64,000 nt of DNA from Gemmatimonadota bacterium (GTDB lineage: Bacteria > Gemmatimonadota > Gemmatimonadetes > Gemmatimonadales > GWC2-71-9): NCBI GenBank assembly GCA_039588295.1, contig JBDHAB010000001.1:192001-256000 (forward strand). The letters are read 5' to 3'. Of the stretch, positions 32,904-39,303 are shown in pieces; position 1 is the stretch's first letter, and every line of letters starts with the position of its first letter. Below the pieces are notes generated by a model. That model saw only the letters and a program-made list of their open reading frames with translations. It was not told where the DNA came from and ran no database searches. Both the position numbers and the translations under genes were made by a program.

Positions 32904-33026
32904 TTGGCTGTCTTAGTTGTTTTCTTACAAGAAGTTACACTTCTACACCACGGTGGGTGTCCGGGTTGACTCTAGCCCTGGCACTGGCTAGCTTGCCCGC
33001 CACATTTCCCTCTGAAGGAACACCCC

Positions 33027-33458
33027 ATGGCGCGCGAGCTTGGCGGATCGCAGATCTCAGCCCTCTTAGAGTCGGTTCCGGGCATTGTCAATGTGCTTCG
33101 GAGCCCGGTCGCGGACGCGCTCGTGGACATGATCCGAGCTGGGGCGGGACTCGACGAGTTTCGCCTAGAAGCAGCGCAGGAACTCATTCAGTATGCAGTG
33201 CGTCGTGGTCTCATCGGTGCCGGTGAGGGCGAGCAAGTCCTGAAGGACGTCGAAGCCGTGGCACCCCGATCGCGGAGGCGTGGTGCGGGTGCACGCGGGA
33301 AGACCCGGGCGGGCGCTAAGCCGGCAACAAAGCCGCGGGCTCGCAAGCCGGTGCCGAAGAAACCCGAGGGGAAGGCTCCGTCGAAGAAGACGGCGACGAA
33401 GCGGAAGGCGCCAAAGAAGCCGGCGAGACAGACCACCAAGAGGGCAAAGCGCCGGTAA
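33027..33458 (+). CDS. Hypothetical protein with histone H1-like Lys/Ala/Pro-rich tail
   Basis: Helical N-terminal domain, then KPATKPRARKPVPKKPEGKAPSKKTATKRKAPKKPA. Confidence 0.75.
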   Translation: MARELGGSQISALLESVPGIVNVLRSPVADALVDMIRAGAGLDEFRLEAAQELIQYAVRRGLIGAGEGEQVLKDVEAVAPRSRRRGAGARGKTRAGAKPATKPRARKPVPKKPEGKAPSKKTATKRKAPKKPARQTTKRAKRR

Positions 33459-33470
33459 CGCCGCTCCGCA

Positions 33471-34067
33471 CTACCAGCGAAACGCGCGCCGCAGCACGAC
33501 CGTGCCACTTCCGGGCTCGGTCTCCGTGAACAGCAAGGCCCCGGCCGGCGGATCGTACTGCGCGGTCCAGATCGTCGAATCGGGAAGCCAGGTGAAGGTG
33601 ACCGTGCGGGTGCGGCGATCCCATTCGCCGCTCTGCCAGCGTCCGTTGGGGAGACGACGCCAACGTGCTTCGCCGCCACGACTCATCCTGAGCTCGATCT
33701 GCCGCCGGTTACCCGTTCCGGATCCATGCCACTCGCCATGTAATGGTCGCGCCAGGAGGCCCTGCGGCGCCATGGTGAGGATGGCTCCTTCAGCCGTCTG
33801 CAGCAGCAGGCGGTCCCGCACGAACCAGTATGAGACGGAGAATGAGCTGTCTCCGGTCACCGCCAGAGAGTCCCGCGTGACTCTGAACGCAACGGGTCGT
33901 TCGTCGTTCACCACGAGGAGCGTGTCAGCATAGAAGTCGAGCACGAGTGGTCGCCCTTGGTGGGTCCCGACCCAGCGCCGCGTCAGGGCCGGCTCTTGCC
34001 CGAGCGCGAGTGCCGGCCAGGAACACGCAAGCCCCAATGCGCAGACCATTTGTAACCAACGCTGCAT
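33471..34067 (-). CDS. Secreted hypothetical protein
   Basis: Signal peptide (..ALA-LG); beta-rich mature part; GAGG SD. Confidence 0.7.
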   Translation of the reverse strand: MQRWLQMVCALGLACSWPALALGQEPALTRRWVGTHQGRPLVLDFYADTLLVVNDERPVAFRVTRDSLAVTGDSSFSVSYWFVRDRLLLQTAEGAILTMAPQGLLARPLHGEWHGSGTGNRRQIELRMSRGGEARWRRLPNGRWQSGEWDRRTRTVTFTWLPDSTIWTAQYDPPAGALLFTETEPGSGTVVLRRAFRW

Positions 34068-34210
34068 TGCGTACCTCGTTTCCCGAACCACGGATGCTCC
34101 GGAACAGTTTATACACCGTACGGGTCCAAGGATAGGCGCCACCGGCATCGCGGTGAGGTGGATGGAGGCACTCCTTCGCGGGCTCGAAGTTGGGATTATC
34201 TTCAAGTGGT

Positions 34211-34831
34211 ATGACCACGTCAGCGACGACACACTCGACGCATAGTTGGCCCGGCAGGGCGGAAGCGCTGAGCCACTTCTTCCTGCGGGCAGGAGAAGCT
34301 CCGCGCCTCATCGCCTACGATGAAGACATGGGCTGCCCGCTCCACAATGCGTTGGCTGCGCTCGAATGGACGCTGGCGGTCGGCGTACTCAAAGACACCG
34401 ACCTGATCCACGCCGCCCGTCTGGGGGGTGAGACGGCCGCCGCTGTGGTGGAACGCCGTCACGACGGGCAGCGACGTTACGTCTACTTGGGGCCACGTAT
34501 GGATGCCCCGCCGGCAGATCCGTACGAGGGATCGCTGTTGTACGACGAGCCCGGCGTCCGTGCATATCAGTTTGTGCAGCGGGCGCACGCGGTGGCGCAC
34601 TTCCTCCGGGCGACTCAGGGGGCGGGAAGCGTGTTTTCCATACTGTCCCGTCGCGCGCCGGAGCTGCGCCACGCCCGACGGTGGCTCGCCGTCGTGTTCG
34701 AGAACCCGCCGGACGCGGTCTCAAACCTGTTGCTCGCTGGCTGGTTCGCGACCACTGGGGGTGGAGTCTTGTTTGCCCCAGCGGCGGTCGGTCAGCCGTA
34801 CGTATACCAAGAAGTGGGAAGTGAGTCATGA
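34211..34831 (+). CDS. Hypothetical protein with internal duplication
   Basis: Protein-like ORF overlapping the start of the next gene; repeated RA.A..HF.LRA motif. Confidence 0.7.
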   Translation: MTTSATTHSTHSWPGRAEALSHFFLRAGEAPRLIAYDEDMGCPLHNALAALEWTLAVGVLKDTDLIHAARLGGETAAAVVERRHDGQRRYVYLGPRMDAPPADPYEGSLLYDEPGVRAYQFVQRAHAVAHFLRATQGAGSVFSILSRRAPELRHARRWLAVVFENPPDAVSNLLLAGWFATTGGGVLFAPAAVGQPYVYQEVGSES

Positions 34832-35382
34832 ATCGTTATCGCGTCCTCTGTGCCGCTTGGGGTCTCGTCGCGGTGTGCACCACGGTGCCTGTGGTGCGTG
34901 CGCAGGAGCGCCAGGACGCGGCGCCTGCGGATAGTCTTCGGGCCGAGTACCGCGCGACCCTCCTCGAACTGCGCGACTCTGTGGCCGTGCTCCGCGCCGA
35001 TCTCGATCGATTCGGGCGCGACCTTCAGATGGCGGGCAACCTGACGGTTCTGAGTCGTGCGGGACGCCTGAACGACCGGTGCGTGAACTTGGGTGTGACC
35101 CTGGGGGATGCAGAGCCGGTCTTTCGCAAAGGGGGCGACTCCCCCCGCCTGCGGGACGCCGCACGCACGCTCGTCCGGCGGATGCGAGACCTCCGGCGAA
35201 CACTGCGTCTCCAGTGTGCCGAAGGGCTCGCGCCCACCGGTCCCGGTGTGTGGGCGGACTCGCTGAAGGCCTGGGGTCCCCATCGCACGAGTCAGCTCGC
35301 TCGTGTGCTGGCGGCGTATGATGGTGCGGCCGCCGCCGTGGCCCGCGCCGGAGAGTTCAAGCTCCAGCCCGAGACGCAATAG
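34828..35382 (+). CDS. Secreted helical hypothetical protein
   Basis: Signal peptide ending VRA-Q; coiled-coil-like; two Cys in the mature part. Confidence 0.7.
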   Translation: MNRYRVLCAAWGLVAVCTTVPVVRAQERQDAAPADSLRAEYRATLLELRDSVAVLRADLDRFGRDLQMAGNLTVLSRAGRLNDRCVNLGVTLGDAEPVFRKGGDSPRLRDAARTLVRRMRDLRRTLRLQCAEGLAPTGPGVWADSLKAWGPHRTSQLARVLAAYDGAAAAVARAGEFKLQPETQ

Positions 35383-35532
35383 GCCCCCCGGAGGGTGTGG
35401 AGTCAGTGTGTACGCCGGTTATGCACACGCTCCACACCGCGTGGAAACTTGTGATCCCGACCAGCAAAACCGAGCGATTTTTCCTCCACACACCGTCCAC
35501 ACAAGTCACGTAAGCCGAAGAAACAGCGGCGC

Positions 35533-35560
35533 TTGCGCGGTTTCGTGGGCCTACTACATT
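35533..35560 (+). promoter_or_regulatory. Putative sigma70 promoter of the intergenic RNA
   Basis: TTGCGC (35533-38), 16 nt spacer, TACATT (35555-60), just upstream of the first helix. Confidence 0.5.
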
Positions 35561-35567
35561 TGAACTC

Positions 35568-35997
35568 CGTTGCTCAGGGGAAGGGTTGAGACCCCATAAG
35601 TCCCAGCCACGCCTTGAGTGGCAGGCCCAAGGAGAGAATTCCGGGGAGGCCGCCGACGCATTCAAGGGCTTCGGGCGTCCTATGATCCGGGTGATCACCT
35701 CCCTTGAGCCGACGAGGCCAGTCGCGTGCCTCGTCCGCACCGAAGTGGCGCCTCGGTGTGCAGTGCGAGAGGCCGGTCCGCGACCCGGCTGACTCGAAGC
35801 GCCCGCACTGGCGAACCTTGCAGCGAGGCCAAGCTGCTTGGGGATGGAGGCCGGAGCTCCGGCGCGCCCAACCGCGGATGCATCAGTCCGAGCGGCGGCG
35901 GCGGGAAGAAGAACAGAGGGAGTAAATCCCCTGGCTCCGGGTAGCCAGCGCGTGGGGCGGCTCGTCACTTTCGGGTGTTCGGGCCGCCCCTTTTTTT
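35568..35997 (+). ncRNA. Candidate large structured non-coding RNA, family unrecognised
   Basis: About ten adjacent helices, loop-loop complementarity GTCGCG/CGCGAC, flanking promoter and terminator, no credible ORF. Confidence 0.65.
35954..35997 (+). terminator. Rho-independent terminator
   Basis: GGGGCGGCTCG/CGGGCCGCCCC stem with TTCG loop followed by T7. Confidence 0.88.
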
Positions 35998-36026
35998 GCC
36001 CAGATGAGCGCTCGCACCCTGGGTGG

Positions 36027-37466
36027 CTACCCCTTGACCACCCCGACGGGGACGAGCTTGGCGACCTTCTTGCCGATTCCCGCCCCGTGCACGACGTCCA
36101 CAACTTGGCGGACGTCCTTGTAAGCCTCCGGAATCTCTTCGTCGACGGTGCGGCGGCTCGCCGCTCGGACCAGGATTCCGTGCTGCTCCAGTTCCCGCAG
36201 CACATTACGGGGTCTTGCGACCTTCCGGGCTTGGTGCCGACTCATGCGGCGGCCGGCACCGTGGCAGGTCGATCCAAACGTCTCGCTGAACGCGCCGGTC
36301 GTGCCCACGAGCACGAACGAGTACCGCCCCATGTCGCCCGGAATGAGGACAGGCTGTCCGATGTCTCGATACCGCGGTGCCAGGTCAGGGTGGCCGGGGG
36401 GAAAGGCACGGGTGGCACCTTTGCGGTGCACGCAGACGCGTTGACGCCTCCCGTCGACTTCGTGGGTCTCGAACTTGGCAATGTTGTGCGCCACATCGTA
36501 CACGAGATCCGCGCTGTCGCTGACCTCCTCGGAGAACACCTCGGCCAACGACCGGCGTACGTAGTGACTCATGAGTTGCCGGTTTGCGAACGCGTAGTTC
36601 GCCGCAGCGTTCATCGCACCGATGTAGGCCTTGGCTTCCGGACTGTGCAGCGGTGCACAGCACAGCTGTTTATCTGGGAGCTCGATCCCGTATCTGTCCG
36701 CCGCGCGGACCATGGTGTCGAGGTAGTCGTCGCACACCTGGTACCCCAAGCCGCGGGATCCCGAATGAATGAAGAACGTGACGGAACTTGGGGTGAGTCC
36801 GAGCCTCGTTGCCGCGTGGTCGTCAAACACCTCTGCCACGTAGCCCACTTCGACGAAGTGGTTGCCACTACCGACCGTGCCGAGTTGTGCCTTGCCACGC
36901 TCCTTGGCGCGGCGGCTCACAGCATCCGGGTTACCGGACAAGGTCCCGTTGGCTTCGATGCACTCCAGGTCTCGGCGCGTTCCGAACCCCTCGTCCACGG
37001 TCCACCGCGCTCCGTGCTCGAGCACTCGATCCAGGGCGGTTGGTGAGAGCTTGACGTCGGAACGTGAGGAGCCGACCCCTGACGGAATTGCCGCGTACAG
37101 CGAGTCCACGAGACGCCGGAGTCTCGGACGGACCTCGTCAACCGTCAGCTGGCTCCGCAACAGTCTCACACCACAGTTGATGTCGTATCCCACGCCCCCC
37201 GGTGAGACCACACCGTTGTGTTCGTCGAACGCGGCGACGCCGCCAATCGGGAACCCGTATCCCCAGTGAATGTCTGGCATCGCGATGGACGGTCCAACGA
37301 TTCCCGGCAGGTGGGCGACGTTGACGACCTGCTGAACGCACGGATCGCCCTCGATGTCGCGCATCAACTCGGTGTCGGCGAAGATCAAGCCGTCTGTGCG
37401 CATGCCGCCGGTGCGGCGAACCCGCCAGCGGAATGCATCGACCCGCTGTACCTCGATGGGCTGCAT
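36027..37466 (-). CDS. rtcB: RNA 3'-phosphate/5'-OH ligase RtcB
   Basis: MPDIHWGYGFPIGG, VGYDINCG, GSGNHF, HSGSRG, HNIAK, HRKGAT and HGAGR. Confidence 0.97.
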   Translation of the reverse strand: MQPIEVQRVDAFRWRVRRTGGMRTDGLIFADTELMRDIEGDPCVQQVVNVAHLPGIVGPSIAMPDIHWGYGFPIGGVAAFDEHNGVVSPGGVGYDINCGVRLLRSQLTVDEVRPRLRRLVDSLYAAIPSGVGSSRSDVKLSPTALDRVLEHGARWTVDEGFGTRRDLECIEANGTLSGNPDAVSRRAKERGKAQLGTVGSGNHFVEVGYVAEVFDDHAATRLGLTPSSVTFFIHSGSRGLGYQVCDDYLDTMVRAADRYGIELPDKQLCCAPLHSPEAKAYIGAMNAAANYAFANRQLMSHYVRRSLAEVFSEEVSDSADLVYDVAHNIAKFETHEVDGRRQRVCVHRKGATRAFPPGHPDLAPRYRDIGQPVLIPGDMGRYSFVLVGTTGAFSETFGSTCHGAGRRMSRHQARKVARPRNVLRELEQHGILVRAASRRTVDEEIPEAYKDVRQVVDVVHGAGIGKKVAKLVPVGVVKG

Positions 37467-37577
37467 CGACGCCTCCTACCTGCAATATACGGGTCGATGT
37501 GCGGAGGCACCGTGTCAGAGTGTTCGGCGGCGCGGGGGGCAACGGGAGGGACGGGAGATGATCCCGGCCGGTCGCGG

Positions 37578-37991
37578 TCAGACGTCGAACAGGATCTCCG
37601 CATGCCACCCTGCATCATCGTGCGCCACGGTGAACCCGTGCCGGGTGACGGCCTTCACTTCGGGCTGCGGCTTGTGGACCACTGGATCGCAGCGCTCACC
37701 TCGAACGAGGACGGCGAGCAGGGGTGGTCCGGGCTGTACGACCTGCAGATCGGCGGGCAGGAATCCCTCGGTTGCGGAACGGTACAGCAGGTCCTGGAGC
37801 AACCGGAGGAGCATGTCGGCTGGGTCGTCACCCTCGACTTCGATGCGATGCTGTTCCCGAGGAACGACTGGGCTGTGACCGGTCAATAAAAGACGCATGA
37901 CTGCGACGCCGTCGGCCAGCACTTCGTCGAATGTCGCTGCGTCAATGGCGACCTTGATGTCGGCGGTGTGCGGTAGAAACCGGTACGTCAC
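37578..37991 (-). CDS. Archease (RtcB cofactor)
   Basis: YRFLPHTAD N-terminus, EVKAVTRH, C-terminal ILFDV; adjacent to rtcB. Confidence 0.93.
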   Translation of the reverse strand: MTYRFLPHTADIKVAIDAATFDEVLADGVAVMRLLLTGHSPVVPREQHRIEVEGDDPADMLLRLLQDLLYRSATEGFLPADLQVVQPGPPLLAVLVRGERCDPVVHKPQPEVKAVTRHGFTVAHDDAGWHAEILFDV

Positions 37992-38054
37992 GTTTCGCTC
38001 CCGTCACCGTGAAAGCGGTACGGTCGATCTGCGCGGGGTGCAACATCGTGTGGC

Positions 38055-38264
38055 ATGTCGCCCTGGTTCACGATGCCTTCGGGATGCGAAGCGACCCATT
38101 CTGCGGCCACTGCAGAGGCCAAGGCGGCGATCACCGCCATCCGGTGTGCGTTGCATCTCCTCGAGAGCACGGCACCTTCGGGTCGCGAGCGCCGGCTGCT
38201 GGTCGCGATCCACGATGAGCTCGCACAGATCCATCAGGCGCTGCGGTTGCTGAGCGGTAGGTAG
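38055..38264 (+). CDS. Possible small helical-hairpin protein (DHp/HisKA-like, no phospho-His)
   Basis: AKAAITAIRCALHLL...LLVAIHDELAQIHQALRLL amphipathic pattern; fills the gap between two minus-strand genes. Confidence 0.4.
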   Translation: MSPWFTMPSGCEATHSAATAEAKAAITAIRCALHLLESTAPSGRERRLLVAIHDELAQIHQALRLLSGR

Positions 38265-38284
38265 GCCGATCGACAATACGCGCT

Positions 38285-39271
38285 TCACGTGATACTCGGT
38301 GCACCCCAATCGCTCCGCAGACGAGAGACTCGCCGATGGTCCAACGAGCGCTGCAAGGTGGAGACGGTCCCCTCGGGAAAGTTGCCGTCGTCGCGCAGTG
38401 CCTCCGCAACGGATGCGGTCTTGGCGCTGGCGTTGTCGGCCCAATGCAGCACCTCGGCTTCGAGCATCATCGGGGTGATGGGGCTGCCAAACTCTTTCTT
38501 ACCGTGATGCGAGAGAATCAAGTGCAGGAGGATGTCGCGTTCGACCGCCGTGCACGGTGCCGGAGACTCTTGGGCCAGGCGTCGGTCGAGCATGAGCGCT
38601 CCCAGCACCACATGACCGAGCAGATACCCAAGCTCGGTGTGCTCGAAGACGCCGTCCCAGCGGTAGGAATCCAGCTTCCCGATATCATGCAAAAGGACCC
38701 CGGTCAGGACCAGTTCCTGGTCGGCGCCGCATGCGCGAGCGATGGTGCGGGCAATGGCGGCTACCTCTGTCGTATGCTTGAGGAGACCACCAATCACGGC
38801 GTGGTGACCGAAGACCGCCGCGGGACACTGCTCATACCGCTGGCGAAACGCATCCTCTTCGTAGAATAAGTCGACCACCGCCCGCAGGCGCAGCTTGCGC
38901 ATCTCCTGCCGCCAGCTGTCCAGCGTGTTCCAATACCGGTCGACGGAGCCCACCGATGGGAGCAGGGCTGTCCGATCGACGGCGTCTGGCGGCACGTGCC
39001 GCAGCGTAGTGATGCTCAGCTGCTTCCGGTCGCGGTATGTCGTTACCTCACCGACCACGTGGACGACATGCCCCCGTCTGAGGCCGGAAACCTCATCTTG
39101 GCGCTCGGGCCAGAATGGCACAGTGCCGATGCGTCCACTCGCATTGCCGAGCGTCAGTATCGTGAACGGATCACCACCTCCCGTCGTGCGAGCGTCGACT
39201 TCGAGCACCAGGAAGGAGCCCTCCAGGCGCGTACCGAGGGTGAGGGAGGGAATGTGGATGGGAGTCGGCAT
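38285..39271 (-). CDS. OB-fold and HD domain 3'-5' exoribonuclease, YhaM family
   Basis: N-terminal OB fold; PAA..HHA..GGLL.HT, LLHDIGK, GHVVLG, HLILSHHG and WAD. Confidence 0.9.
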   Translation of the reverse strand: MPTPIHIPSLTLGTRLEGSFLVLEVDARTTGGGDPFTILTLGNASGRIGTVPFWPERQDEVSGLRRGHVVHVVGEVTTYRDRKQLSITTLRHVPPDAVDRTALLPSVGSVDRYWNTLDSWRQEMRKLRLRAVVDLFYEEDAFRQRYEQCPAAVFGHHAVIGGLLKHTTEVAAIARTIARACGADQELVLTGVLLHDIGKLDSYRWDGVFEHTELGYLLGHVVLGALMLDRRLAQESPAPCTAVERDILLHLILSHHGKKEFGSPITPMMLEAEVLHWADNASAKTASVAEALRDDGNFPEGTVSTLQRSLDHRRVSRLRSDWGAPSIT

Positions 39272-39303
39272 GTCAGAAACCTAGGTGCAATGGGCCCTCG
39301 AGC

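Follow-up and report, generated by a model that had tools for sequence, protein, structure and literature searches.

The 64,000-nucleotide stretch of Gemmatimonadales DNA analysed here (the window) almost certainly contains a stand-alone, non-coding gene for a structured RNA of ~430 nt, in which a constant 95-nt core, predicted to hold two pseudoknots, is accompanied by optional 5' and 3' domains (Table 1). A preliminary description of the same DNA had put forward an independently transcribed large structured RNA outside Rfam, and this was supported by a conserved promoter and terminator, covariation, the absence of a conserved reading frame, RNA contigs confined to the interval and the lack of any Rfam match. 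The ~430-nt unit proposed there corresponds to the full-length form; the constant unit is the core.

Table 1. Features of the RNA gene and its neighbourhood (positions in the window)
Feature	Position	Strand	Basis
Orphan protein gene P0001, 206 aa, candidate partner	34211..34831	+	co-occurrence, linkage
184-aa gene without family, optional, between orphan gene and RNA	34828..35382	+	
TCCACA/TGTGGA box cluster, putative DnaA boxes	35395..35505	.	enrichment, likeness to dnaA boxes
27-bp imperfect palindrome, abuts -35 element	35510..35536	.	alignment conservation
Sigma70-type promoter	35533..35560 (-35 at 35533-38, -10 at 35555-60; 16-nt spacer)	+	sequence, conservation
Optional 5' domain	35570..35710	+	helix scan, 95 full-length homologues
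5' domain hairpin	35588-92/35600-04	+	
5' rod	35626-32/35703-09, 35640-45/35686-91, 35648-54/35674-80	+	
Putative K-turn in 5' rod	G35646, A35647; bulge 35681-83; G35684, A35685	+	consensus match
Constant 95-nt core	35711..35803	+	covariation, natural short forms
Hairpin A	35711-18/35728-35	+	covariation
PK1, loop A-loop C, six pairs	35721-26/35779-84	+	covariation
Hairpin B	35736-43/35753-60	+	covariation
PK2, loop B-tail strand after hairpin C, five pairs	35747-51/35799-803	+	covariation
Hairpin C	35764-69/35793-98 plus 35772-76/35785-89	+	covariation
Optional 3' domain	35804..35952	+	covariation
3' closing helix	35804-12/35944-52	+	
3' hairpin	35816-25/35832-41	+	
3' helix	35851-56/35935-40	+	
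3' helix with inner stem	35858-62/35902-06	+	
3' GNRA-like hairpin	35914-21/35927-33	+	
Intrinsic terminator	35954..35997	+	z -6.15; covarying pairs 35963/35981, 35964/35980
rtcB, convergent, incidental neighbour	36027..37466	-	Pfam RtcB

The fold model was derived from an alignment of 138 de-duplicated homologues that reach the 3' end (effective number 75, mean core identity 71 %), and pairing was counted in 37 sequences less than 80 % identical. Because the structure comes from the same family, these counts lean towards the model: within the core, 95.1 % of 1398 cells were paired, with two-sided change in 28 of 38 pairs, and within the 3' domain 90.7 % of 1541 cells were paired, with two-sided change in 35 of 42 pairs. 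None of 500 shuffles reached the values for either region, and slid controls gave 33–44 % and 34–46 %, respectively. Thirteen predicted helices are backed by compensatory changes in the alignment, including two pseudoknots that were absent from the preliminary fold. Among the 138 sequences, the PK1 pair 35721/35784 was G-C in 102 and A-U in 27, and the PK2 pair 35749/35801 was C-G in 96 and U-A in 41. There is little variation in four of the six PK1 pairs, so that support for PK1 comes mainly from one covarying pair and rare two-sided changes. Both PK1 loops have a self-complementary 4-nt centre, and the unpaired residues C35761, G35791 and A35792 were invariant in 37/37 sequences.

Small ribozymes are of similar size and contain nested pseudoknots. 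This likeness and the invariant unpaired residues would suit a core that acts as a trans-acting ribozyme or as a ligand-binding RNA. Passages of PMC10861870 argue that most large bacterial ncRNA classes of established function are catalytic. We nevertheless regard such a role as unlikely, given that no Rfam family matches and that no regulated same-strand gene follows in the window. Constitutive self-cleavage at the core borders is improbable because RNA contigs bridge both of them (e.g. those matching 35573-35848 and 35641-35940).

Five stems of the preliminary fold held in 95 full-length homologues, with paired fractions of 0.99 for 35711/35735, 0.99 for 35736/35760, 0.97 for 35771/35790, 0.96 for 35820/35837 and 0.95 for 35918/35930. 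The 145-nt 5' rod of that fold did not (35572/35709, 0.50 and 0.35; 35612/35667, 0.46), and three further stems, 35761/35810 (0.79), 35838/35871 (0.71) and 35931/35948 (0.75), were unsupported in the same homologues and had been mis-paired, their strands covarying with other partners. Besides the two pseudoknots, the earlier fold had missed what we take, from its consensus, to be a K-turn in the 5' domain. The K-turn residues were conserved in 91, 95, 95 and 95 of the 95 homologues, and the motif was found in 75 of 95 homologues compared with 24 of 1900 shuffles. In the 3' domain the junction strands are purine-rich and near-invariant; ten residues (G35813, A35814, A35815, G35842, A35844, U35845, G35908, A35912, A35913 and C35914) were identical in 138/138 sequences, a set chosen for reaching the 3' end. 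At least 93 of these 138 also share a palindromic centre in the loop at 35826-31. Folding energy was less informative, the whole sequence being only weakly better than its shuffles (z -1.90, 4/100 shuffles as good), with z values of -1.66 for the core, -2.77 for the 3' domain and +0.15 for the 5' rod. The case for the structure therefore rests on comparison of homologues and not on energy.

The RNA is modular. Among 93 copies sized by script, four were 171–180 nt, eight were 289–328 nt and 81 were 370–437 nt long. Some genera have the same promoter and neighbours but just the core and a short hairpin followed by the terminator, while others have lost only the 3' or only the 5' domain, independently. 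The K-turn-bearing 5' domain is absent from the short forms, and a covariance model of the 3' domain (R2) matched 56 of 73 genomes of the own family compared with 72 for the core, the domain being reduced or lost in several genera. The core is retained in the shortest natural forms (~170 nt) and wherever the 5' and/or 3' domains have been lost, which indicates that it is the unit under constant selection.

Promoter-like hexamers had been claimed at the locus, and homologues bear them out: the -35/-10 pattern is retained in 117 of 122 main-type copies, which are defined by an upstream motif. The pattern was present in 17 of 31 other copies, ten of the 31 having at least two boxes. A simple promoter scan listed no promoter here. 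The proposed terminator likewise stood, and its shape is conserved in homologues. Among sequencing runs, 20 of the 22 listed contain part of the stretch (18 recorded as RNA, 15 studies), and contigs of eight runs from seven studies were mapped at 80 % likeness. Metatranscriptome contigs covered the RNA interval, and were confined to it, in 8/8 runs. In each of the first four runs, summed contig depth reached 264 to 106,404 within 35532-35953 and never exceeded 8.1 in any of the remaining 28 bins of 33000-39300; these depths are sums over relatives, from runs preselected for containing the stretch, and carry no information on strand, ends or level. Contigs of the four further runs covered only 35564-35962, with none over the promoter or beyond. 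RNA contigs start in bin 35564-35584 and none lie in 35480-35563; the one that matches 35573-35848 does so with three differences. The interval is thus present in RNA libraries, and the depths suggest high abundance, contig depth not being a measure of level. Contigs of run X1 end at ~35948 and continue into adapter; the terminator varies among relatives, so no 3' trimming is claimed. A circular RNA was considered from back-joints 35948->35634 and 35948->35711 and rejected, each joint being found in one contig of run X2 and in none of the other seven runs.

A minus-strand open frame of 282 codons crosses the region and rtcB abuts the gene here, from which a coding sequence, a riboswitch or leader, or an RtcB-linked Y-like RNA might be read; we give these readings next to no credence. 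Homologues have no conserved reading frame: core lengths of the 138 sequences fall into the three classes modulo 3 as 44, 35 and 59, and 21 homologues are without any open frame. The earlier statement that no same-strand gene follows for a riboswitch to control was upheld, since the RNA ends in a terminator, the downstream genes vary in identity and strand, and no regulated gene follows on its strand in the window. The link to RtcB and Y RNA was dropped. Contrary to its earlier use as an informative neighbour, rtcB flanks the RNA at only five of the RNA-bearing loci in the set L001–L087, the gene for the 206-aa protein being informative instead, and ARAGORN found no tRNA-like gene at the RNA. 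In the window, rtcB belongs to a row of genes convergent on the RNA, with archease (37578-37991, minus strand) and a YhaM-like HD nuclease (38285-39271, minus strand).

The RNA was compared with known families. Rfam 15 found two tRNAs only in the window; the best score in the region, 21.4 bits on the terminator, fell short of the cut-off of 45, and the best E value at 20 homologue loci was 1.1. It had been claimed that the RNA is not RNase P RNA, tmRNA or SRP RNA, and indeed none of these matched at the locus and their genes lie elsewhere in the genome: RNase P RNA (RF00010) at C1:186671-187036 with 297.5 bits, SRP RNA (RF00169) at C8:65897-65996, and a partial tmRNA match at the end of contig C13 with 45.2 bits, just below the cut-off of 47. 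ARAGORN reported no tmRNA in the window. The tmRNA gene is apparently split over the contig ends of C13 and C52 (near 17300), the C52 piece being recognised by eye; past the 3' end of the gene lie a box cluster and an AT-rich tract. OLE RNA gave no Rfam match.

6S RNA and Ms1 are abundant stand-alone RNAs with a sigma70-type promoter. The RNA at this locus shares the stand-alone arrangement and promoter type, and a role as an RNA polymerase decoy would accord with its apparent abundance. The Rfam 6S model (RF00013) matched neither the locus nor the own genome, nor any of 75 genomes of the two RNA-bearing families besides the own genome, nor any of 73 other genomes in the own family. However, two profiles built from 6S matches of the phylum identified a separate 6S-like gene in the own genome at C4:79304-79468 (plus strand; E ~1e-8), preceded by promoter-like hexamers and followed by a T-run. 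Genome G133 supplied one row of the first profile, and the second, without it, gives the same match. Because the Rfam model finds none of the 73 own-family genomes while the phylum profile finds the gene, the model likely needs extending. The existence of this gene led us to reject a replacement of 6S by the present RNA. The core is moreover a pseudoknotted three-hairpin unit and not a rod with a central bubble, such a rod not being conserved here, and we consider a polymerase decoy improbable, a shade more so than a ribozyme or ligand-binding RNA.

The raiA motif RNA (RF03072) was compared as well. As described in passages of PMC12968392 and PMC10861870, it too is stand-alone, abundant and structured, with two pseudoknots and optional peripheral stems, and one of its pseudoknots is similar in sequence. 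A distant, rearranged raiA RNA might therefore be imagined, in that a hairpin loop pairs with a downstream strand through a similar 6-nt sequence; the six-bp pseudoknot similar to raiA PK1 joins two hairpin loops here. Model searches were negative in both directions and homology was rejected: RF03072 did not match the locus or the homologue loci, and the best E values of the core model R1 and of R2 were 0.12 on 80 and 0.37 on 60 raiA-pattern loci, that is, none below 0.1 (19 of 20 such loci checked are raiA by Rfam). A conserved P1 stem joins the 5' and 3' ends of raiA according to PMC12968392, whereas no such covarying end-joining pairs were among the top 90 here. Unlike raiA, which is found in Bacillota and Actinomycetota, this RNA is without P1, has a core of three adjacent hairpins and occurs in Gemmatimonadales; descent from raiA is very unlikely.

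No description of this RNA was found in the literature, in which subscription papers and bioRxiv supplements were scarcely covered, and motif lists there could contain it; passages of PMC9331176 concern a scan of known riboswitches only. The RNA counts as new in that no tested RNA family matches and its topology could not be placed.

The RNA has a narrow and nearly complete distribution. R1, for which 27 candidates were scored per genome and which, being built from members, could miss very divergent copies, matched 72 of 73 own-family genomes, 2/2 of the sister family, 0/31 of family f2 and 0/43 in nine other families; outside the two families the core was found in 0/74 other genomes of the phylum. 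By BLAST, the element was present in 35 of 36 own-family genomes and 10 of 12 from family f3, two f3 matches and all three f2 matches being short or weak, and a larger draw gave 99/125, 3/3 and, for f2, 0/70. R1 had no match in f2 genomes near syntenic genes (best E 0.15), and R2 gave weak matches of 21–25 bits in 3/31 f2 and 1/16 f7 genomes. In collection-wide pattern scans, matches were placed in Gemmatimonadales by database record. Gemmatimonadota made up 79 of 80 among the matches listed in one scan and 61/61 in a second, whose pattern caught only a variant. A single Bacteroidota pattern match had no profile match, 18/18 pattern matches from outside Gemmatimonadota did not score with R1 in a scan that covered 15 of 64 parts of the collection, and viral contigs held no copy by core pattern and none by protein. 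In one own-family genome, G029, the RNA and the orphan protein are both absent, as is a third neighbour, which makes a gap in the assembly more probable than joint loss. Genomes G021 and G209 supplied rows of the homologue alignments behind the 95- and 138-sequence, promoter, sizing and K-turn counts and were excluded from alignments A1 and A2, and G098 is one genome in the larger BLAST draw and in the R1, R2, protein-presence and linkage tallies; the results do not hinge on these three genomes or on G133.

Two or three matches were found in 20 of 75 genomes, at least one of which (G077:C7) is weak and does not look real. The own genome (G000) has a second, shorter copy (L068, C10:49302-49588), divergent from a gene with an aminoacyl-tRNA editing domain (PF04073), in which the PK1 pair set is changed and the 5' rod absent. 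A class of paralogues (L070, L072, L077, L098, L099, L103, L115 and L147) has a medium-sized 5' domain that appears to retain the K-turn, and repeated TTCA-like words upstream in place of the box cluster, perhaps for another regulator. Two outlying copies were noted: L638 (1570-1666 of a metagenome contig), strongly diverged and full-length, which scores 52.6 bits, lies beside the orphan gene and would be useful for deeper covariation, and L389 (G035:C164:3644-3740), a weak core match of 40.9 bits with promoter- and terminator-like flanks, in which PK1 and PK2 are altered and look compensated, possibly a remote paralogue.

The orphan 206-aa protein and the RNA core occur in exactly the same 75 of 150 genomes, and in 74 of these 75 less than 1 kb separates the orphan gene from an RNA copy, the distance being 90–962 nt (median 391); in the 75th, a contig begins 0.6 kb from the RNA. 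The gene is upstream on the same strand in 71 of the 74 linked genomes and downstream and convergent in three, where it sits at the RNA 3' end, away from the boxes. Of 80 metagenome contigs selected through the protein, 59 contained the core, including 46 of the 47 that extend at least 1100 nt downstream. Given the distances, many loci probably have no room for the 184-aa gene that lies between the two here, which has no Pfam or NCBIfam match. Other neighbours do not track the RNA: a YhaM-like gene was present in 40 of 73 own-family genomes and also in 16 of 31 of f2, and a gene for a 225-aa protein in 16 of 73 own-family genomes. The YhaM-like gene is often the direct downstream neighbour of the RNA in relatives, yet 33 of 73 own-family genomes lack it and RNA-less families have it, and a link to this nuclease was rejected.

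The orphan protein has no Pfam or NCBIfam family, and a remote-relative search returned 130 clusters, read as the same family and fragments. It is modelled (pLDDT 85) as a compact alpha/beta protein, a two-fold repeat of a strand-helix-strand-helix-three-strand unit. No solved relative was found, the best Atlas score was 0.77, and Foldseek gave no match at E 0.001, a result that does not prove the fold new. The best fold-search Z score was 6.1 over 68 residues and an AP2-like fold reached 5.6, Z values below 8 possibly reflecting a common arrangement only. The protein is acidic (pI 5.0–6.3, net charge -2 to -10), and its alignment has six invariant and five nearly invariant arginine columns.

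The shared range, the adjacency in two orientations and the invariant arginines favour a partnership of protein and RNA. We tentatively propose, short of holding it probable, that the core binds the 206-aa protein to form an RNP, probably an abundant one, whose level is likely adjusted to growth state by way of DnaA boxes at the promoter. Hairpins A and B would stack into a rod, and hairpin C would clamp both of its ends, by a loop-loop kiss at one and a loop-tail pseudoknot at the other, so that the double-pseudoknot core would offer the protein encoded beside it a compact, nuclease-resistant docking unit. The optional 5' K-turn might recruit an L7Ae-family protein, as OLE RNA does with OapC, and the optional 3' domain might add tertiary or RNA-RNA contacts. 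An L7Ae-family gene was found in 5/5 genomes and also in genomes without the RNA. The particle would serve as a scaffold or decoy when replication slows, its output tied to DnaA. The partnership and the role are the weaker step and set the confidence of the whole explanation, which stays somewhat below an even chance. Counting against the partnership are the acidity of a protein without a recognised RNA-binding fold, a locus (L650) that has the protein and a box remnant with no RNA within 2 kb, and extra RNA copies located away from the protein gene. The shared range of protein and RNA, one clade, may also reflect a single gain.

Upstream of the core, at least two TCCACA/TGTGGA boxes occur within 420 nt in 118 of 122 main-type copies, compared with 0.17 per 420 nt genome-wide. 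Around dnaA, clusters of these boxes were found immediately downstream of the gene as well as at or near its promoter in 5/5 genomes, two of them without the RNA and the protein, from which we infer that those before the RNA promoter are DnaA boxes. Judged from these motifs, the RNA gene is likely under the control of the replication initiator DnaA. In the own genome dnaA (C1:190421-191870) is located immediately to the left of the window and ~35 kb away from the RNA, and a box cluster and AT-rich tract downstream of it mark a likely replication origin; yidC is at the window start (576-2312). In a weight-matrix scan of the own genome the palindrome at the RNA scored 42.8 and the next best site 13.0. 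A similar palindrome was seen by eye upstream of an RpoD/RpoS-like sigma-factor gene (C3 near 107750), and both adjoin box clusters.

The RNA may instead act without a dedicated protein, folding or assembling by itself like raiA, ROOL and GOLLD, with PK1 possibly intermolecular and the protein a promoter regulator or a partner of the box cluster. The self-complementary centres of the PK1 loops and the palindromic loop of the 3' domain are compatible with self-assembly, and kissing loops join ROOL and GOLLD monomers in the account given in part of PMC12286853; the palindromic loop, however, is lost in paralogues and short forms. The acidic protein, and L650 with its protein and boxes but no RNA, also fit an RNA independent of the protein. 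A regulator role would agree with the boxes that precede the sigma-factor gene in 3/3 protein-bearing genomes (L603, G000:C3:106000-108300; L604; L608) and in none of three orthologues from f2 genomes without the protein, and with the weak AP2-like match, although at that Z score the match may be a common arrangement only. Against it stand the three genomes with the protein gene at the RNA 3' end, away from the boxes, and the boxes around dnaA in genomes that lack the protein. We regard a protein-independent RNA as possible and on the unlikely side, and continue with the RNP as the preferred reading.

Among known systems, OLE RNA offers a parallel for such a particle. In OLE-bearing genomes oapA adjoins the RNA gene, and OapC belongs to the L7Ae family. 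Two OLE-like features were found here, a K-turn consensus and a tightly linked protein gene (74/75 genomes, 46/47 contigs), which make the RNA a candidate RNP. Passages of PMC12286853 describe OLE as a large structured RNA with associated proteins and a K-turn bound by OapC. This RNA differs in being smaller, with a 95-nt pseudoknotted core and an optional K-turn domain, and in its neighbour, predicted to be an acidic alpha/beta orphan, unlike the membrane protein OapA. GOLLD and ROOL are likewise large RNAs with kissing loops (PMC12286853, in part), whereas this RNA has no Rfam match, was not found in viral contigs and keeps a stable chromosomal neighbourhood. In contrast to raiA, for which the gene context gave no strong protein-partner candidate according to passages of PMC10861870, gene context supplies such a candidate here.

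Few bacterial RNAs are both large and highly conserved, and every class that has been worked out has brought new biochemistry to light. The present RNA is nearly universal within its clade and offers three handles that were lacking for raiA, ROOL and GOLLD at their discovery: natural deletion forms from which a 95-nt minimal unit is defined, an orphan protein neighbour that withstands rearrangement, and a conserved promoter with DnaA-type boxes. In vitro work or a laboratory host would allow tests of its structure, binding and regulation, with no need to grow the source organism. It is possible, if rather doubtful at present, that the RNA and its neighbour represent a new bacterial RNP class, in which a 95-nt double-pseudoknot module of undescribed topology, with optional K-turn and 3' domains and a protein of unrecognised fold, would be one of the most plentiful RNAs in a lineage common in soil and sediment and, through a connection to DnaA, would couple the chromosome cycle to growth arrest.
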